NCBI GenBank assembly: GCA_000320545.1
Contig: ADNK01000065.1
Span: 1 to 36,574, forward strand
Length of the DNA stretch: 36,574 nucleotides
Source: Bigelowiella natans CCMP2755
Lineage: Eukaryota > Protista > Cercozoa
Reading direction: 5' to 3'
The notes under the pieces were generated by a model that had not been told where the DNA came from, did no database searches, and saw only the letters and a list, made by a program, of their open reading frames with translations. Of this stretch, positions 14,588 through 32,155 are shown in pieces. The position numbers were made by a program, and so were the translations under genes. How positions within the stretch are numbered: position 1 is the first letter of the stretch; each line of letters opens with the position of its first letter.

Positions 14588-15185
14588 CGTGTGCGTATGT
14601 TTGTGTTTACTGTAGTACACGCTTTGCCGTTTTCCTTGATGCCTCCCCCTGGTTTACCCCTCGACGATTTTACAGCTGTGTAGTTCTCTGACTGCTGCTA
14701 AACACTTCAATATGATTTGTTTCTTACTAAGAGTATCATTGACCAAGGCCAAGATCAAGAAACAGACAAATTGCCGAATATTAGATGGAAAGATTTTGTT
14801 AATTCCAATTCAAAATTCCGATCATCGCCCCTACTTCCACGTGAAAGAAAGGCACACACTATTGAGGACCAGCTAGAGCATCGACTAAAATTGGTATTCA
14901 TAATATTTTGCTATGTTGTTAGACGCATATTTGAACGGCTTCTTTCTTTATTAATTATCGATAATTATTAATAGCTCACAGAACAGCTTCCAAACGAAAC
15001 AAACAAGCCACGAGCTGCAGAAATTCGTAGGATTATCCGGTTAGAGCACCTATTATGCAAATATGTGCTATGTCTTAATACAAATTACAATTGCAATTAA
15101 ATATACAGAGAAACGGCAAAGGCCCTCACGGAAGCTAGAGCGACTCCACGACGGGCTGCTTAAAAGAAAGCATTATGATAGATAA
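3689..15185 (+). CDS. Long multi-exon protein (possibly two genes) with two tandem CxxC..RRCxxC Zn-ribbon modules and His/Asp/Glu/Lys-rich low-complexity regions; function unknown
   Basis: Chain of mostly phase-compatible GT-AG exons: MKKFLDNFPPERTFKDEDD|FARHLYYEE|VAKGRNP..; ..KWKYYLAEGFK|EIRKMCIKCKRKG|LMQREDME|NGYGIRRCILCNTVW; ..REFLAKGYK|GVQTKCTNCDYRGG|IVQFRDEK|YPRKIRRCLACGTMW; SQIADNLKKEMR|EEMQPLRDYL..; a large exon at ~11341-12368; last exon ..LLKRKHYDR* (TAA 15183-15185). The 5' end and several internal links are unresolved, and there is one apparent frameshift near 5760. Confidence 0.5.
6870..6955 (+). repeat. 47-bp-period tandem duplication containing a 3' splice site
   Basis: TTGTCTTTTGATTCTTTTTGTTTTCGCACCATCAGTATC occurs at 6870 and at 6917. 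Confidence 0.9.
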
Positions 15186-16109
15186 ATTGAGCATCGACAA
15201 CTAGACTACGCTATATACAAGTTCCTGTTAGTGCAAGGAATGCCTTGGCCTTTCCAATGAAAAGAATTACAAATATTTGCGAGAACATATTAACGTGCTA
15301 GCGTGGTGCCCCATGAGGTTTGTGGCATGGGCGCATGAATATTTTTTAACAAACACGTGTACGCCTGCTAGACACACATGCATGCAGCATGCACACAGCA
15401 GTCTAAGTGCTCTAGTACATGTACGGTGATTATGATTATTATGAGCTCATTAGCTATGTGTGGTATATAGCTATCGCTCGGCTATTTGCAACATGCTTAT
15501 GTTTTTGTCATCATGCTCGTTCTGGCATTCTAGCATTGTGTGCATGTGAGCTACAAAGTGCAAACCTAGTATGTACAAGGGAAAGGTGCAGCACTGCGAG
15601 CATTACGCCGTGCTTCATTTACACTTATTTGTTCATGTAAGCAGATCATGACAAGTATAGTGGCATGCTAGCATGCTCCATGCGCAGTGCTTGCAGCTGC
15701 TATGACACATTTTTAATTAAATGACACAATTAATTTTGCTGGCGCAGTAGCGCGTTTTGTGCGATTCCTCTATTCCTGCAATGAACTCAAGCAAGGCTAG
15801 AAGGTAGCTAGCTAGCACTGAAGCAAGATAATGATGATAGTGTTCAGAGTGTGTACACATAGCGCGTTGATGACTGACGAACTATGCAACATGTAGCAGC
15901 AGCAGGCGTGTAATTACACATTATTTGCATAATAAATAAGCCGTACACTACGTACGCGCTTGCTAATTGTGCGCGATGTCGCACTGAAGCTAGCTAGCTA
16001 GCGAAGGCAGTCGCAGCAGCAATAAAGCATATATTTTCCTTTGTCACCAACTTTGATGAACATTAATTAATTTGTCATTCTCATGCTCTATGTCAACCTG
16101 TGTGGAAAT

Positions 16110-21286: not shown

Positions 21287-23100
21287 GGCCTTTTCAGACG
21301 AGAAACAAATGACTCCTTGACTTTCTCTTTTGCAGTTAGTTGTTTAACTTATTACTTGTTATTCTTGTTGAATCTCCGGACAATTTTTGCAGGAAACCAA
21401 TAACCATACTCATCCTTAGCGTCTACCATGGAACCTTCGTCAAGACAAATCCCCAAGACTCTCCGTGTAATTTTCATCGGCTGCAGTATTGCAGGAACAA
21501 CCACAGATAAACAACAGCAGCAGCATTTGAAAGAAAGAAGAGTTCTCAAAGTGGTCTATCAATACACTGACTTTTACCAATCGGTCATGTAGTTAACACT
21601 ACAATTGACAGAAATTATTTGTAGTATTCTCTCTTTTCTACGCTTATTTGATCATACGAGAATGATGAAGTAGTTGTTAAAGGAGGCTAAGGAAAACTAC
21701 TTGCACAAACGGAAATGGTCTCCGGTGATAGGGATAGGTTTCTATTGCTGGAAAAAAATAATGCTGATTTTCGTCTACTATGTATGCTGACTTGGAAGAA
21801 GGCTAGGAGAGTTTCAAGGAAAAACCGACGGAAAAGAAGAAATGCTAAGCTAATCAATCATGGAAGGAGTCATCACAATCACAATCACATTCATCATCAT
21901 CATCATCATCATCGCGTACTCACTCAAGCGAGGAGACTACTAACTACATCTACCACCTCATAGTCCTTGACTAATTCATCCCGTACATCACAGAGGCGGG
22001 AAGAGCTCGAAAATGACAGCTTGCGTTTAGATTTTCTCTCCGGTTCTCCTTCTGCCGTCGTTTGAAGCTAGTAGGTAGGAAGAATACGACAATTATTAAA
22101 ATGGGTTAGTTACGAGGAAGCAAAATCACCATGATCGGAAGAATAATGAGTAGTAGTGCGGATATGAGTCGTAGTAGTAGTAGTAGTAGTAGTAGTAGTA
22201 ATTCTCATTTCATACCAACTCATCATTATCTCCCAAACTGACGAAATCAAATAGAAGAACACATTTAGTAGTGTGTTGATGTTGGGAATAGCATCCTTTA
22301 CCACGACTTAATAATAACTGAATGCAGCCTTACACTGCAAGATGCGCTGCTGCTGCTACTACTGCTGCTGTGCTGCTAATGATAGTGTGGCCATTCCTGT
22401 CACTACTACCTTTGTCTTTTTTTTTTACTTGTTACATGTTATTATTATTATTATTATTATTATTACCAAAGAGATAATCATTGGATAAAGATCTAGCCTG
22501 ATGCTTCTCTTCAATATTCCAAGTTCCCTAGCTTCACGTACAATCGGAGTGTGGCCACCATACCTTTGATCGTAGTAAAAGAAGAGAACAAGAGAGAGAC
22601 GACGAAAACAACATTACAACACAGTACATAATAAACGGCGAATGGATAAATCATGATGGCAAATTCAAGAAGCAACCATATTTAATTTATCGCTCAAAAG
22701 AAACACACCACTGCAGCCAAGCCTTTGAGACAGATTCTGGTACAGATACATAGTCACGACTCTCCCTTATTCCGCGCTTAAGTTTGTTGTAAGAATCCAT
22801 CGAGTATAAGGAGTCGAGGAGGATTTCTCCTGGAGATGATGATACTGAAGAAGAAGAAGTAGAAGCAGCAGTAGGCTTTACAGGATATGTTGTTTTGACA
22901 TATGCTGCCCACTTCCTTGCCCAAGAGACGGGAATGATAGCTCTCCTATCTCCGACCTAATAGTAAGTAAGTAGTAGTAGTAGTAGTAGTAGTAGTTGTT
23001 GTTGTTGGACAAATAATTCTGGCTGATGATGATAACCAGTCTTCCGGTGTAATTGTCTTCTACATCTATCATAAGCTTTTTCCGATTCAGGAAAGCTCAT
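16185..23100 (-). CDS. Ubiquitin carboxyl-terminal hydrolase (USP, peptidase C19) with N-terminal DUSP domain and Tudor/MBT-like repeats; multi-exon
   Basis: Cys box [18 protein letters not shown] (~18130-18195), QQDASELL (~17700) and His box [30 protein letters not shown] (16185-16403). DUSP motif reconstructed across exons at 22470-22957: [41 protein letters not shown]|[14 protein letters not shown]. Tudor/MBT-like [16 protein letters not shown] (~21380-21430) and [19 protein letters not shown]|[15 protein letters not shown] (~18600-19100). The start at ATG 23100 (MSFPESEK) is tentative. Confidence 0.9.
17248..17364. repeat. 56-bp perfect tandem duplication inside a USP intron
   Basis: ACTATATCTCAGTGAGTACGATGATCAAGTAAATCGTGCTTATCGTTGTCATTATC occurs at 17248 and 17304. 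Confidence 0.9.
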
Positions 23101-23135
23101 TTATGGAAGAACTTCGATGAATCTTATCCTCATAG

Positions 23136-23567
23136 GAGCTCATTCTACAACAACTACACAACAGCAGCAGCAACAACAACAACTACTACTACTACTACTA
23201 CTACTAGCAGTATACCATCTGGTTTCATCATAAACATGCACGCAACCACCTTGAGCGGTCCTGCCTGAGATGCCAGACTGGTAATCTGTTCTCTCTGTAG
23301 AAATCATTTAAAGACACAACGATGACGATGAGGAGGAGGAGGACAGTTTGAAGGCGAATAGAGAAATTTAAATGAGAGTAAAGTGCAGAATGACAAAATC
23401 ATATAACTACGGCCACCACTAGCACTACTGTCGCACTTTTTTTGACCTGTTGAGCTGGAGGGGGAGGGGCAACAGTAGGTTTAGCTGGGGGAGGCTTTAT
23501 TGGTAGACTAATAGTTCTTTTTGTTACAGGAGGGATCACCAACTAAAGATCATGTAGCAACAGCAGT

Positions 23568-23631
<64 letters not shown>

Positions 23632-24918
23632 CGTGAGTTCATGCGCGTCTTATTTCTAATTTAGATGCAGATTTGAAAATAAATCAAAATTGCTTGCAAA
23701 CTCATTCACATAAGAAATATAATGATGATGATTCATGAATGAACTTAGCTCTGCCGCAAAGAAAGACCGTTAGCGTTTTCAGTCATTCACTTATATCATG
23801 TAACAGCAGTTGGAATAATGATGCTATAATATTCCACTACTTTAATTTGCAACCAAGTAATAGCTACCACGGAAAGTAACAATTAACTACTTTGATGATT
23901 ACAGATACTATTTCTACGTCTCTCATGTTATTCCCAATGAATATGGTGGTGGTGGTGGTGGTGGTGGTGGTAATCGTTATGAGAGTTCTCTTTAAATTGA
24001 TAATTTGCTTTCGCCTTTCTGATGAGTGGTTGGAAATAATTATACAACTCACTTGATTGTCATAATCCTTTTTATCCTCCTCACTCATCATCACGGGTCG
24101 AATCTATATGAGAGGCATGGAAAAGTATGAAGAAAGAAATAATGAGTGCTAGTGGACATAATCAGGGAGTATTCCAAAAGCTATGATTCATCGTTTTCCC
24201 ACCGCTCATATCTAAAAATCCATATCTTGGCTCATATACATTACATAATTTGAGTCATCTGAAAAGTGATAATGGTTATCTCCATCATCCTATTCCTGAC
24301 ATCTTATTACTCACCAAAGGCTCCTCGCAATTCATCTCCTTTTGAAAATGTTGACCGTCTCGTTCATAATGAACCTTGTCGGTGATAACCGCAGCATTGA
24401 GAACAGAGGAGGGGGGGGGCGGGGAGTAGAACAAGAATAATTTTGTGATTATACTGTTGTATGGAGAAAAACTTGGCGCTATAATCATTTTACGAGAATT
24501 GCATCGTGAGAAAATTCATACGAACGAGGAGCATTGTCAAAATAATGAAATAGTCCGAAAATGGTGCTGCTTTATGTTGTATTCATTTAGAATAATTTTA
24601 GACGTAAAAATCAATGCTAACATAACGAATAAGCGTGTGGAAGCACATCGATTTTCGATGTAAGTTTCGCTCAAAGTAGTCTATTTTATTGTTTCTTGTA
24701 TATCATCATGTTCCGCTTAAAGTCTATATCAATGGTTTTTGTATATCATCATGTTTGTTTGTCCAAGTCTCCTCATACACTACTATGCAACCAGCACCTT
24801 GATCATCCTCACTACCCCCATCTCCTTCGATTCTAATTTGAAGATTTTGTCGATTTTGCCCTGGATATGAAAGCAGCAAGTGTTGGGGTGGTGGAGAGGG
24901 ATCCAATACAGTATTAAC

Positions 24919-24971
<53 letters not shown>

Positions 24972-26110
24972 TTATCTACACACACTCACACACCCACACG
25001 CACATCGGCAAAGATAACGTTATCCGCACCTTATACCAGCCGTCGCCGCTGGTTGAATACACCTAAATAAGAACAAAAAAGAATATGGTAGCTCACATTA
25101 TTTATAGTCGTATTATTTGATGGCAACATCATCTATCAAATACCTAGTAGTACACGCCGATGCTAAATACTACTGACCTCTATTTCATCTCCCACTTTCC
25201 ATGTCTGTCTGATTTTCGATTCTTCAAGGGACTTCGTGCGAACAAGAGTTGTGGGAACGTAATTTTCCGTTGACATCTAAATATTATTTTTAAGAAGCCG
25301 AAAGAAAAGGATGGAGGGGGGGGAAAGGCAACCTTGAATTAAGAAATTGCGTTTTTTTATCCAACTTGGTGAAAAACATGGTCTTCTATCTGTTGCAAAA
25401 GACAGATGGTTTATCTGCTGAGTAATAGTAATATGGTCTTTCTGTCTGTTGCAATAGACAGACAGTTTGTGGAGTAGTAATGTTGAGGAGACTGACTTTA
25501 GAATCAACATCGTTCTTCGACATTGTACCAACTAGAGGAAGGCCTCGAGACAAATCTTCGGATAATTCTTTCAATTCTTGCTTCCCAAACTTTTCTCCAA
25601 AGTTATCGCACAGGTACTTGAAACGCTAACGATTATTATGTATGCATTAGAGTGAAGGATCCTTAAGCGAGTGCTCATCGCTCACTTTTTGTGTGCACCT
25701 TGCAAGTGCAGTGTTTGTACGTTTGGGAATGTGGAGAATGAAAGTAATGTACTAATGAGCTAGGCACTGACCTGAGCGATGCGTTGATTCTTAGTTAAGC
25801 ACGTAATGAGCTGGAATTGCTCCAATTCAACCAAGTCCTGGAGTCGCCCCCGGTAAATAATTAGGTGTGTGAGATTATACCAACAATGTATGTGATTACT
25901 GCTCAAGCACCCATACCTAATGTACTAACCTTGAGAATGTCGACCATTTCTTGCTTGGAATAGCCATCTCTGTTGTCTGGAAGATGACCGGATATTGCTC
26001 CTACGTGCATTAGTCGATGTCGGTCATCATTCCGTTGTGCAACTCCTCAAAAAAAATTAACCAATCTCGTGAAGCGCATTGAAGCTCAACTGCTTCAGTT
26101 TGTTTTCCAT
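23136..26110 (-). CDS. Multi-exon hypothetical protein with an N-terminal Rho_N/SAP-like helical segment and a Tudor/SH3-like WKVGDEIEVYS..W..G domain
   Basis: Spliced exons: MENKLKQLSFNALHEIG|AISGHLPDNRDGYSKQEMVDILK|DLVELEQFQLITCLTKNQRIAQ|RFKYLCDNFGEKFGKQELKEL..; ..RQTWKVGDEIE|VYSTSGDGWYK|GKIDKIFKL..MIK|VHYERDGQHFQKEMNCEEPL|IRPVMM..; then a Pro-rich exon at ~23447-23540. Both ends are uncertain. Confidence 0.6.
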
Positions 26111-27873
26111 CCTTCTTCGTTTTCTGGTTCAAGCAGCTTGTTGTTAACTTTCTTGTTACGGGCGAACGGGCGAAGGAGCCTAATGAGCGGATGGATCTTG
26201 CACGAATGATAGCCCTTTTGATGAAGCTGCAGTCCTCTTAAGATATTTTGCTTAGAATGAGCATTTGTCGCACTTCAAACAACGCATTGTGTTTGTCCTC
26301 TGCGACAATCAGACAGCAGGGCAACAAGTACCGGTAATTAACAACAAGAGACCACTTCTCTGCTTTGCGCGACAACCAAAAAAATGATGTGCACAATTGC
26401 GACGACTGTCAAGCCGATGGGGACAGGGCGGGCCCCATCCCCAAACCATGTGTCACCGATGGGATGGACAGATGTATCGCCCTGACCATTGGTGACTCGG
26501 TCAATCAGTGAAGGACGCTTGGATCTGTTGTGAAAGACTCTTCTTGTGCGAAGACGTTCTGGCGTTGCTCAGATCAAACAACTGGCTGACAAACTTGCAC
26601 GGACAGCAAAGAACACCCTGAACAAGCCAAACGAGGACTTGATGTGAGCGTCCTCGCGTGGCTTCCCCCAGTCCCTCTGGCCCTCGACAAATGCAAGTCG
26701 GTGGGGAAAAAAGTGAAAAACTCCAATTGTGCGTTGCACGTCCATCGTTCCAAGCCAGCAAGCTGGCAAGCCCCTGGCTGGCTCGCTTGTTGGGCTTGGC
26801 AACCACGCCAGCACGCTGGCATGTCACGCTGGCACGGACCAGCAAGCCAGGTGGGGAGACAAATCTTGAAGTCGCAGCTCCAGCGCTGCGTGCCTTCCCA
26901 TTGACTCAAGAGCTCTCCCACCAGACTCAAAACAACAAAGAGTTCAGGGCCTTCACTCGCTCCAGCGCTGCCGAAGCTTGAGGGAAAGTTGAAGCACCAG
27001 AGCAGTCAAGCCAGCAAGCCAGCTCCAGAGCTGGCCAGTCAGGCTGGCATGACCAGACTGGCAGAGGACTCACCCAGCCACGTTGGAATGCTTTGCACCC
27101 TGACCGCGCAGTGCACGCTTGCACCAGCAGCAGCAACGCCAGAGCAATCTGCGTGCGTTCGTTGGCTGCGACAAGCAACACGCACGTGGTTGACAATGCA
27201 GCCGAAGTGCGATGTGCGACTTCGACAAACTGCCGCGACAATGCATGCAGTGGCTGCTGACCAATGAGAGCCAATTTCTCACGAGTCATCGGGCTGTTTC
27301 GCCCCCATCAAAGTTCAGCGCTGCCGGCGCACATGCTTGTTCAGGCAATTTCGCCTTGATGAATCTTGACATTGTGCAGCACGCATGAAACGTCACGTCG
27401 TCATCATCACAGAATCCAAACTGCTGCTTGCCCCTCCTCCGCAACCTGGTGGCCCACAGCGCACCCTGCCCTGCACTCCGTGCCATTGGCCAACTGACTT
27501 CCAACAAGCCATCACTGGATCACAGCACCAGAGTGGCCAAGCCGTCATTTTTTGGTCCTCGTTCAAGTTTCAGCCCGACCAGCCGAGGCACTGCGTTTCG
27601 TGTTTTGCAAGTGCTGGAGTGTTGTGCAACACTGAAACGGCAAACAAGACTTTGGAAGTGCATGGTCGGCTGGTCGCTCGTCAGGGCTTTTTTCTTTCTT
27701 TCTCTGGTTCTTTCGACGTGATGGTCGACTTGCTCGACCTGGCGATCATCGAGTTTCTTTCTGCTCCTTTCTTTCGGTGCAGTCTGAGTCACCAACGCAG
27801 TGTTTCTTTCGTTCAATTCGAGCATTCCAGCATTGAAAAACCACTTGCATCGTCGACTCTGGGACTTGTCGAC

Positions 27874-29631
27874 TGGAGCTGGGCACAAACAATTTTTTTT
27901 GTTTGGAAGTGCTTTGCTTTGCTTCTGAACAAGTGTTTGATTTGAACAAACAATGCCTGCGTGTCGCGAAACCAGTGTTTGGTTTGTTCAAACAATGTTC
28001 GAACAAGAAGCAGCGTTTGCAAGTGCATTTGCAAACACTTTCCGCAAGGAAAATGTTTGCAAGTGTTTTCCTGTGAAAATCGTTTGCAAACAATTTGAAA
28101 AATTTGAAACGTTCCCGCGCAGCTGCGCACAAAGCACGACATGACAGACCAAATCGCAATGCATTTGAATGCGCATTGTGCAACGTGTGACAAAGGGAAC
28201 AAACAATCGCACAGGCACAACTTCACAACTCATTGCAGATGGACATGGTTGTTGCGTGGACGCCATGCGCATGCAGATGTGTGGCATCATGGCGCACACA
28301 TGCTGCCATTGAAAAGATTTGATCACTTCATCACATCCGTCTCGTGGCTGCTCAGGACTCAGGACTCAGCCCCACAGACTCAGGAACTGTTTTTCTCTGC
28401 TTTGCAACCTCCAGCTGTGCCTTTCTCGTGTTTGAGAACTTTCCAAAATCTGTCCAACTTTGACAATTTGTTGAGCATTGCCAATGCTTCAGCTGTGTCT
28501 GTCGACAATGCACTTCGACGCGCTGTCAGTGTCAAGCCACACAACAAGAAGATGCGTTCGGACTCGACTGACGCAGCTTCAAATCATCGTTTTCCTTTTC
28601 ATGCCGAGCTAGCGAGTGATGCTTCTCCAAAATGGAGCTTCATGCACAAAGATGCATTCTGATGGAAAATGACAAGCCCTGCGGGTGGGGTTGTCAATTG
28701 CAAATGCAATTTGAAACAGTGCCAACATGGCATCTGATTGGTTGTTTCTTTGGTGAAATCAGGGAAGCAAAAGCAATGCAGCGTGTTGCAGACACACGTT
28801 TTTGATTGCTAGTTTGTTGCACCAATGAGAATGAGCTGCGCTCTCGCAAGGTGTGCACGATCGCAACAGCAGCTGCTGCACGTGCTGCTGACTAGCTGGC
28901 CCTGGCTGACTGGAGCTAGCAGCAATGAAGTTTCATCAGTTGCACATCAGTGGTGCGAGATGCTGGCGAGATGGCAGCGAGACGGATGCAATGAAATGAT
29001 CTGTCACTTTTTTCAATGGTCCGTCACAACCTGGCAATGCACATGCTGGCATGTGCAGTCCAACAGCACCAGAGCAGCAGTGCGCAGCACGTGTGCCAGC
29101 GCATGGCATGGCGGCTGCGTGCGTGCATGCTGCGCATGCGCAGCACATGCGCAGGCCTAGCTAGCTAGCCTGGTCGCCGTGGCCACGTGGGTGATTTTTC
29201 TTCAGAAATTCACCGACAACGCAAGCTCAGGCGATCTCAAACTTGGCTAGCAATGTCGGCAATGATTGGCCACGCTGGACGCATGCAAAAGCTCAATTTT
29301 GGTGATTTTCTTGAAACATTTCCAAAAATGTTTGCAAACACATTCAATTTGATTTGGTTTGAACAAACACGAACACCTTGAAAAATCATTTCCAAACACC
29401 AAACACTTGCAAACTTGTGTTTGGTTTGTTCAAATGCCACTCTAGCTCGTGCAAACAAGCAATGATGGACATGCAATGCACAACATGTGCAATGTGCACA
29501 GTGCAATGCACAATGCACACGATGCACATGGTGCATTGCTGTGTCCATCATGGCATTTGATTTGAACAAGTGATGTTTGTTCAAATGCATTTGCAAATGC
29601 ATTTGTTTTCAAGCATTTGTGCCCAGCCCCA
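27874..29631. mobile_element. Non-autonomous (internally deleted) hAT-superfamily DNA transposon, 1758 bp
   Basis: 8-bp target-site duplication TTGTCGAC at 27866-27873 and 29632-29639. TIRs are TGGAGCTGGGCACAAACA (left) and TGGGGCTGGGCACAAATG (right, reverse complement). Subterminal TTTGATTTGAACAA / GTTTGGTTTGTTCAAA repeats occur at both ends, and there is an internal transposase remnant. An 8-bp TSD is the established hAT signature. Confidence 0.9.
28420..28580 (-). pseudogene. hAT transposase C-terminal dimerisation-domain remnant
   Basis: Minus-strand translation EAASVESERIFLLCGLTLTARRSALSTDTAEALAMLNKL matches the hAT dimerisation consensus (A/S)S..SER.FS..G...T.RR..L....E.L..L. In-frame TGA codons lie just upstream. 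Confidence 0.8.
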
Positions 29632-29740
29632 TTGTCGACACCATTCCAGCATTGCCTGTTGTCCTCCAGCTCCAGAGCTGGCTAGCCGCAGCCAGCGCAG
29701 ATCGAAGAATGAGCACAATTGCAGTGCTTGGTGTGTGTGC

Positions 29741-29774
<34 letters not shown>

Positions 29775-31098
29775 AAGCGTCACGCATTGCAGCTAGCGCA
29801 GATGGACTGACTCGATCTGGAGCGGAGCATTCAGCTGTGGCTCTTGAGCTAGCTAGTCAGCATCGTTCCAGCATTTCAGCATTGTGCCGCAGCTAGATTG
29901 CACGATGAATTTCCGGCAGATTTTTCACTCAGGCAAGCTAGCAAGAAACGAAAATCACATGCATCTCTCCAAGCTCTCTAGACCTGCTAGCTAGCAAGCT
30001 GTGCGTGCATGCCAGCATGCATGACATCAAGCTAGCAAGCTAGCCCATGGTGGCTAGGTTTGCTCTAGTCCACTGCTGGACTGCCATGCTAGTCTAGTCT
30101 AGCAGTGTGCACGTGCTGGTGTTGTCACGTGCGTGGCCGTGCACGCACAAAAGACATGATCACGTGCAGCCACGCACCACATGCGGCGTGGCCAGACAAT
30201 GGACACAAGGAACAAGCCACATGTGATGTGCAATGGTGCACACAGCACATTCTGTGTCCATTGTCCAGGTGCACGTGACTGTGACATTCCACCACATGAC
30301 CAATGCTGACACAGCATGAGTGTGTGTGAGACCATTGCAATGAAGTGATTGAACGTTCATTCATTCAATGGTCTTCCTGATGTGCACGTAGCTGGGCGAT
30401 CGAAACAGCGGCCACGCACACAGCAACGCTCATGCATGTTGTTTTGTCTGTCTCGCGCGTGACGCACATTTGCACATGCCTAGATGCGCACATCCAGCCA
30501 TGCATGGCCTAGCTAGTGCTGCATCGCAATTGCACACAAAGTCATGGACCGCGTTGCGATGCGCTTTGTCATCATCATGGATCTAGAGATCATCATGATC
30601 GATGACCACTAGCAAGACAAAACTACAGCAGAGAAGATGCAATTTGTCTAGTCCGATTCGTCTCAAGTAGCTTGTCGCAGTCAATGCAACAATCGCTGCA
30701 TCACAGCGCATGCGCAATGCCACATGCATGTGCCACATGTGCTATTACTATGTCCATTATCTGTGCGCTGTGTCGCTGCTATAGATGAACATTGTTAAAT
30801 GCATTGCATCCACATGTTGCACACATTGACCGCCGCTAGACCGGCGTCAACGCATTATTGATCGACATCCATTTAGCTGCTATGTAGCTTTGCTAGTTTG
30901 GTGCTTTCGACTCAATGTTGTTTGATGAGGCACTGTCACCACACGCGCCCGTCCACATGCGCATGTTTAATTAGTTATGTGGTCATGCATAGGTTACATT
31001 TTTTGTCATTGTATTTTTTCATTACTGTTTTATATGCTTCAATTGCAATGTCAACTTTGCTATGAGTACTATCTACGACACCAGCGTATCCTTTCTTT

Positions 31099-32155
31099 TT
31101 AGGATATTGTGCAACTGATGCATACTGGAGATGTTGTAGATCCTTCCACCAAAACTGTTCTTGCACGGCCACTCGAATCATATATTACCCTACGCTGTGA
31201 CGACGAAAACGTCTTCCCGTCGTTTCGAACACTTTCGGTGCTACTGACAACTGTCGATTCCGCTGGTCCAGTACCGTTCGGGGATGTTACTTTTGAGGAC
31301 TCAAGAAATTCTTTTATGCTCATAAAAGGAAGTTTGGACTCCTCTTTGGGATCTATCCAACCTGGTACCTCGTTGTTGCTACACTTGTGATCGAAAGTAC
31401 AGCTTCGTTCCCTTTTACCGTTTCTTTCGAGGTCAAGAATCGATTTGTATTGATCTTTGGAAGAGGATGATGAGGAAATGCATTGAATATTGCCAAAATG
31501 CCCTTTGTCGTATAGATAACATTGAAATTTTTCTACTTGTAGGAGCAAATTTTGGCTACGGATCTGTACCCCGCTGTACCGGGTTTTGAGCAGGTCTCTA
31601 CATTCCCTGAGAGGACGCTTTAAATGAAACATAGTGTAGCACAGAACCATTGCAAATGCTCGCTGCCCGCCTCCATCACAATGCACTAAAACGGTGGAAT
31701 CCTGCGATCGGGCCGATTCTATAAATGTCACTCCTGATACGAAGAAATCGAAGATTTCCGAGCAACCACTACAGACTAGGATCGGTGATCTTAGGTAACT
31801 TAATTTTGGATGACTGAACTCCTTGCAGGTTTCTGGAGCCATATTCACAACGTGCCTAATACGAAGGCGGCATAGTAGGCCATAGTCTTGGCTTGCGACC
31901 TAAGCAGATAACACATCAGGGGTTGATTGTAAATTCGTCTATTTTTTAAAGTTGTACCTTGTCGCCTAGATATAAGAAAGGAAATATTTTCCAAACGTTT
32001 TCAATAGGTTCTGCATCCATTGGGTTAGCTAAGGGAAAATATGAGGTCAGCTATTATTGGTGAAGTCACAGAAGGTGGAGATTCAAACCTGCACTGCTTG
32101 ATGATTTTCCACATTCTGAGGACTGACTTATATTACTGCGCTTCTCCGATGGCAT
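31099..32155 (-). CDS. Dual-specificity protein phosphatase-like protein (atypical DSP), 3 exons
   Basis: Exons MPSEKRS..SSA|ANPMDAEPIENVWKIFPFLYLGDK|VASQDYGLLCRLRIRHVVNMA..FIESARSQDSTVLVHCDGGGQRAFAMVLCYTM carry the DSPc hallmarks LYLG, I.HVVN and VLVHCx5R..A...Y.M. Confidence 0.85.

Follow-up and report, generated by a model that had tools for sequence, protein, structure and literature searches.

A deleted hAT element of 1,758 bp in Bigelowiella natans very probably lies within a 4-kb domain of TpA-hypermutated DNA, in which the damage likely accumulated in two layers and was likely targeted by region. The features of this locus, within the 36,574-nt stretch of DNA analysed here (the window), are collected in Table 1.

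Table 1. Coordinates of the element, the purged domain and the neighbouring genes in the window
Feature	Coordinates	Strand	Remark
Left target-site duplication (TSD) TTGTCGAC	27866..27873	+	8-mer found just twice in the window
Right TSD TTGTCGAC	29632..29639	+	identical to left
Left terminal inverted repeat (TIR), 16-bp core plus CA	27874..27891	+	begins TGG; TAG in related copies
Right TIR, 16-bp core plus TG	29614..29631	-	
Subterminal YR-TTTG motif array, left	27892..28130	.	
Subterminal YR-TTTG motif array, right	29301..29613	.	
Very high-copy motif	28306..28345	-	minus-strand RNA reads of related loci end there in poly(A)
hAT transposase, last 65 codons (C-terminal dimerisation region)	28383..28577	-	88% identity to P0005
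Segment aligning with the terminal part of an abundant plus-strand transcript, likely captured	28581..28731	+	template keeps TA at 9 listed sites
Core of TpA-purged domain	26476..30388	.	no TA outside CTAG, 3,913 bases
Fringe of purged domain	to 30742		only CTAG and three GTAG/CTAC
Left flank, heaviest damage	26476..27865	.	0 TA, 0 CTAG, 38 CTGG/CCAG, ApT rho 0.63, GC 55%
Right flank, lighter damage	29640..30623	.	21-22 CTAG retained, 1 other TA
Host gene model, DUSP-domain ubiquitin protease N-terminus (Bigna1 126060)	22690..26010	-	
Host dual-specificity phosphatase gene (Bigna1 66621)	31099..32155	-	

Extent and setting of the purged domain

Beyond the patch, the longest stretch free of TA other than CTAG is 203 bases, versus 3,913 bases within it, and a gap of this length has a log10 P of about -137 at the TA rate of the flanks. 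Between positions 26481 and 30600, 30 TA are left versus 246 expected, and 29 of the 30 belong to CTAG. The TA rho is 0.12 within this interval versus 0.85 outside, and the CA/TG rho is 1.77 within versus 1.20 outside, with values of 1.51-2.0 by segment. The initial annotation had described TA as absent here. Outside CTAG this description is correct; on the other hand, nine TA remain in the element, all nine of them in CTAG, and the loss is not restricted to the element but spans 26476-30388, reaching 1.4 kb to its left and 1 kb to its right. Neither this reach, nor the sparing of CTAG, nor the earlier description of the process in B. natans features in the initial annotation.

The domain fills the gap between two host genes and ends approximately 470 bp short of each: the stop of the phosphatase gene (31099) is about 475 bp from its right edge, and the modelled start of the ubiquitin-protease gene (26010) is 466 bp from its left edge. 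At this locus the process comes as close as about 470 bp to host genes. Over 266 aa, the product of the phosphatase exon at 31102-31899 shows 100% identity with a protein labelled Bigelowiella natans, and two further window proteins match Bigna1 models. Contigs from the DNA runs X6 and X7 match 27600-27903, which spans the left junction of the element, and 29419-29602 with 0 differences, and one X6 contig matches 27977-28112 with 0 differences; an assembly artefact is excluded by these contigs. As hardly any target is left in the domain, this identity would fit a raised as well as an ordinary present-day mutation rate.

The left flank is at single-copy depth over the 270 bases of 27600-27870. 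Its six frames gave no match to Pfam, its best PHROG match (E 0.005) was rejected, and the one open reading frame queried against the Atlas gave no usable match. The right flank resembles the GCTAG-rich intergenic DNA at 15001-16050, which is unmutated, holds 92 TA and served as its control. A (TG)n microsatellite at 29742-29773, within the purged domain, could in part be the remnant of a (TA)n run, of the kind present at 23566 and 36180.

Relation to TpA hypermutation in B. natans and likely chemistry

According to the main text of Mettrop et al. (bioRxiv 10.64898/2026.01.13.699255), integrated viral DNA of Bigelowiella natans undergoes TpA>TpG/CpA hypermutation, by which the mutation rate is raised 1000-fold in two viral inserts. 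Of the 231 de novo changes described there, 230 were A>G/T>C, every one on TpA; none of the 231 mutations hit ApT, and the text limits hypermutation to TpA. Low-TpA genes are reported to be enriched for DDE and reverse-transcriptase domains, with 124 genome clusters, and an ADAT2-like enzyme is named as a putative candidate. The locus in the window has in common with the viral inserts of that text the host species, the dinucleotide, the two products (TA>TG and TA>CA), regional clusters and transposons as targets, and it is likely a case of the published process. Here, 500-bp windows across 26501-30500 have a TA rho of 0-0.33, in a windowing that differs from that of the preprint. In contrast to the viral inserts as presented in the preprint, the process has here reached its end point, in a small DNA transposon together with the intergenic DNA on either side, and the sparing of CTAG, the second tier of ApT hits, the gradient within the domain and the sharing between copies are found only here, as far as the main text goes. 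The basic phenomenon is therefore that of the preprint, and the extent of the purge, the CTAG sparing and the ApT tier are new relative to its main text, in which the words "CTAG" and "context" each occur 0 times; its supplements list mutations and may show context. Literature searches for CTAG with Bigelowiella natans, or with a TpA deaminase and a transposon, found none, and the available text of a giant-virus preprint (10.1101/2025.11.19.688996) is without a CTAG motif.

Based on this likeness, targeted TpA hypermutation would be the likely cause of the domain. A likely adenine-deaminating enzyme would act on either strand in a silenced region, so that A>G on the top strand would yield TG and A>G on the bottom strand CA. 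The reciprocal CA/TG pairs would follow from A>G on either strand; the related copies show that TA did become TG or CA. Deamination of A is the chemistry towards which we slightly lean, and the sequence is compatible with modification of either A or the T paired with it. Polymerase eta favours TA in a WA pattern, and oxidised thymine can pair with G. An error-prone polymerase or oxidation of T in TpA, in place of an adenine deaminase, is thus a conceivable source, though a somewhat unlikely one. TA is self-complementary, which makes A>G and T>C indistinguishable, and the candidate enzyme of the preprint is, in its main text, still putative; however, AA/TT steps show no depletion (rho 1.19) and one T8 run persists unaltered, unlike the WA pattern, and the changes reported in 10.64898/2026.01.13.699255 were, in 230 of 231 cases, pure transitions on TpA.

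The process may also be set beside other known systems. Fungal RIP makes TpA from CpA and can leak into flanks. RIP, which the preprint cites, is likewise a regional, dinucleotide-specific transition mutagenesis of repeats, but it is opposite in direction: C>T at CpA raises TpA, whereas here TpA is lost and CpA/TpG is gained. Furthermore, unlike RIP, the B. natans process was seen, according to the preprint, in mutation-accumulation lines that grew vegetatively, and a viral insert present in a single copy was among its targets.

CTAG and, probably, ApT as slower contexts

Among the 34 TA that remain in 26476-30742, 31 lie in CTAG and three in GTAG/CTAC, versus 14 CTAG among 92 TA in the unmutated CTAG-rich control. 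The survivors are not evenly distributed. In 26476-28608 there are 0 CTAG versus 42 CTGG/CCAG, and in 28609-30623 there are 30 CTAG versus 25 CTGG/CCAG (Fisher 6e-10 for the left versus the right zone; background 3 per kb). CTAG is a slow target, not an immune one. Its loss forms a gradient that has its maximum to the left of the element and runs across the element borders. A 20-base direct repeat (27019-27038 and 29666-29685) flanks the element; its sole difference, CCAG versus CTAG, is an example of a CTAG that was hit to the left of the element and kept to its right.

A second slow context is probably ApT. The left flank has 44 ApT versus 70 expected, with a rho of 0.63 against a minimum of 0.89 among 148 outside windows, and in a simulation a purge of TA only left the ApT rho unlowered. 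In the alignment to related sequences described below, 8 of the 10 non-TpA A>G/T>C difference rows fall at ApT (background 0.23, P 2.5e-4, among the best 40 of 179 rows), the direction of these changes being taken from the majority letter. Judged from the survivors and the differences to sister copies, ordinary TA seems to be lost fastest, followed by GTAG/CTAC and last by CTAG and ApT. With regard to the part of CTAG that blocks the reaction, 8 of 10 one-sided sites favour the 5'-C, whereas k-mer excesses favour the 3'-G. The ApT rows depart from the short-term spectrum of B. natans, in which only TpA is hit; since the species and the other features match, they would represent a slow second tier of the same process.

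It may be asked whether CTAG was shielded, by methylation or a bound protein, rather than disfavoured by the enzyme. Intergenic DNA here typically contains runs of GCTAG, as the 14 CTAG in 15001-16050 illustrate, which would suit a shielded site, and literature searches for data on DNA marks in B. natans found none. Shielding is nevertheless unlikely: surviving CTAG have varied outer bases and occur both in the element and in the flank, and the half-sites GTAG/CTAC survive next, accounting for 3 of 3 surviving TA outside CTAG at the fringe (P 0.004). If CTAG and ApT are indeed disfavoured by the enzyme, the rule that CTAG is slow and ApT late is a fingerprint for testing candidate deaminases.

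Structure and identity of the element

The consensus start of hAT TIRs is YAG/TA(A/G). With TGG in the window copy and TAG in its relatives, the TIR start conforms to this family feature. The two TIRs are identical at 15 of 16 positions and are followed by CA on the left and TG on the right (reverse complement). The YR-TTTG motif occurs 12 times in the first 257 bases, 15 times in the last 331 and 4 times in the middle 1,170, that is, 46 per kb in the 588 terminal bases versus 3 per kb in the middle; 25 of the 27 terminal motifs have CA or TG, two have CG and none has TA. By analogy with Hermes, as described in PMC10368747, these motifs may be bound by the transposase.

The transposase remnant of 65 aa is 88% identical to the C-terminus of the B. 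natans protein P0005, which scores Dimer_Tnp_hAT with an E of 2.5e-17; the remnant alone (E 0.041) falls short of the cut-off. Six frames of the element held no further transposase parts, and a search of the remnant against 50% representatives gave one weak, repetitive match, which was discarded. P0005 (Bigna1 74739) lies on another scaffold, has 1 Tyr in 402 aa, and carries His/Met where Tyr/Ile are usual; it is itself, to judge from its composition, a TA-purged copy annotated as a gene. The hAT identity proposed in the initial annotation is borne out. An 8-bp TSD is described as diagnostic of hAT (PMC3355664) and subterminal arrays are described in Hermes (PMC10368747); because both are present here together with the remnant 88% identical to a hAT protein, the element is assigned to a deleted, non-autonomous hAT derivative. 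Like the Ds-like non-autonomous hAT elements described in PMC3355664, PMC10368747 and PMC3285750, it has an 8-bp TSD, short imperfect TIRs, subterminal repeat arrays and a remnant of the C-terminal dimerisation domain, and it was likely mobilised in trans. It differs from the elements of those descriptions in that just 65 transposase codons, joined to a likely captured piece, are left, and in that every TA of the TIRs and subterminal motifs has been converted.

The piece at 28581-28731 matches, on the plus strand, the terminal 140 bases of an RNA-like contig 1,183 bases long and of very high depth, whose DNA template is single-copy and retains TA. Its junction coincides with the end of the transposase match, and it is likely a Pack-type captured fragment. 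The 40-base motif at 28306-28345 occurs at roughly 200 times single-copy depth; an inverted near-copy lies at 28978-29019, and a less similar copy at 30328-30349. Compared with related contigs, 8 and 14 additional bases are present at 28605-28612 and 28939-28952; the 8-base addition makes CGAG-CTAG-CGAG and could be an excision footprint. Pattern scans for the TIR with the subterminal motif in metagenome contigs, and for the high-copy motif in metagenome and viral contigs, gave 0 matches, and no unmutated copy of the element is present elsewhere in the 36,574-nt window.

Timing of the damage and copies of the interior

From the reciprocal mismatches, the initial annotation had dated the mutations to after insertion. 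The TIRs and subterminal motifs are carried along unchanged when an element moves, so their mismatches date only from the origin of those motifs and leave the insertion undated. Only the TSD becomes identical at insertion; here it is identical and uninformative. The proposed immobilisation of the element is hypothetical as far as its ends go; for the interior, it is contradicted by an estimated 5-8 copies that share the TA-free sequence. Copy numbers were estimated by relating contig word depth to 17 values per run that looked single-copy and were picked by hand (their medians being 9.8 and 72.9); contigs of this type lose rare variants, and the sister copies are represented by partial contigs. 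By this estimate, 28406-28545 is present in about 7.5 copies, with 0 differences in the X6 and X7 DNA runs; 28665-28903 (X6) in 7.7 copies, with 4 substitutions; 28724-29069 (X7) in 6.3 copies, with 7 substitutions and a 14-base gap; and 29098-29240 (X6) in 4.7 copies, with 1 difference. A TA-free interior is thus estimated to be common to about 5-8 copies.

In these shared stretches, about 690 interior bases, some 30 more TA would be expected at the flank rate, and the shared contigs restore just three CTAG and one GTAG. At six sites (28701-28723) where the transcript has TA or the reciprocal state, the X6 contig agrees with the window. Independent choices between TG and CA would not yield shared 31-mers; most interior hits therefore likely predate the split from the sister copies, and hence mobilisation. 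The sharing does not reflect duplication of the whole locus on the left, since 27600-27870 is at single-copy depth. On the other hand, each of the 7 substitutions relative to the X7 contig is an A>G/T>C change in the window copy, three at CTAG and four at ApT; the sites 28398-9 and 28647-8 are reciprocal to the sister contigs; and the end regions 27977-28112 and 29419-29602 are at single-copy depth and private to the window copy. The later layer, which comprises CTAG and ApT hits, some reciprocal sites and probably the ends, would be specific to this locus; damage to the element ends after insertion, which the initial annotation proposed, is quite plausible. In X6 and X7, the contig of this locus stops exactly 30 bases into the element, which suggests that these 30 terminal bases, TGG and CA included, recur in another context; two independent hits could also be responsible, the chance of which is about 1 in 4 per copy.

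An element with intact ends that was inserted, only later lost all its TA and was killed by that loss would explain why both flanks are purged too and why the CTAG gradient crosses the element borders. The end regions private to the window copy, and the reciprocal differences at 28398-9 and 28647-8, which arose after the split, would also fit. However, this course of events is quite improbable, because the roughly 690 interior bases are nearly letter-identical to contigs at 5-8x depth and already lack TA outside CTAG but for one GTAG, and because the contig break in both runs points to TGG and CA elsewhere. Under the two-layer reading, an earlier donor would have lost most of its interior TA before that interior spread to about 5-8 copies; once separated from the others, the window locus would have taken further hits in the slower contexts. 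As this late layer tracks the position in the locus and not the element borders, targeting is likely regional, through chromatin or RNA-guided spreading, rather than base-by-base homology. A broader reading, put forward tentatively, is that the mutator follows a graded code, sweeps domains from gene to gene whatever their copy number and does not stop hAT derivatives, with target-exhausted elements escaping. The continued spread of mutated transposon interiors that is suggested here bears on whether the process works as a defence; if the reading is true, elements without remaining targets escape that defence.

Ancestral state of the CA/TG sites

The letters and coordinates of the three CA/TG pairs, the TSD and the TIRs check as first described. 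Besides the pair that follows the TIR cores, these are G-TG-TTTGATTTGAACAA (27933) versus G-CA- (29553), and GTGTTTGGTTTGTTCAAA-CA (27975) versus -TG (29417). Two of the three pairs sit at the very end of the aligned repeat, and the pairs alone are weak evidence. An automatic tally of repeat pairs in the patch found 26 CA/TG among 405 labelled mismatches, many of which are chance pairs; the tally, run with no shuffle control, was set aside.

Related copies were compared by aligning to 27600-29725, at 80% likeness, the contigs and reads from four of the 24 listed runs. Difference rows were counted in the best 40 of 179, picked by support. CG or fixed CA/TG in the relatives, which the initial annotation had named as evidence against a TA ancestor, was not the pattern seen: among these best 40 of 179 rows, 20 restore TA, 8 represent four reciprocal CA/TG sites, 8 are A>G/T>C at ApT, 1 restores CG and 3 are other changes. 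No RNA run was listed as containing the stretch itself; the aligned RNA reads do not agree exactly with the window, most of them stem from related loci, and they are therefore uninformative on expression of the window copy. One related end reads TAGG, then GCTGGGC; in another, TA precedes GAGCTGGG. Related subterminal motifs read G-TA-TTTGATTT and G-CA-TTTGA. Site 28398-9 exists in three states, with TG in the window, CA at about six copies' depth and TA at about two. These relatives support TA, not CG, as the ancestral state, in agreement with the initial annotation.

Decay of an ancestral CG by deamination of 5-methylcytosine, with a merely compositional scarcity of TA, is scarcely credible and is refuted as the main cause because related copies carry TA: row 28129 has CG in all other copies and two motif copies read CG, but 20 rows restore TA versus 1 restoring CG (best 40 of 179), the CpG rho is the same inside and outside the purged region (0.71 and 0.68), the CG motif at 28081 corresponds to CA in other copies and represents a double hit, and such decay is unable to remove about 215 expected TA.

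The conversion of TA can also be followed in the likely captured piece and in the coding remnant. At 28701-28713, the window reads CA-AA-TG-CA-ATT-TG and the RNA reads TG-AA-TA-TA-ATT-TA. In the comparison of the remnant with P0005, Thr stands opposite Met and Ala opposite Val, the outcomes predicted for ATA and GTA codons.
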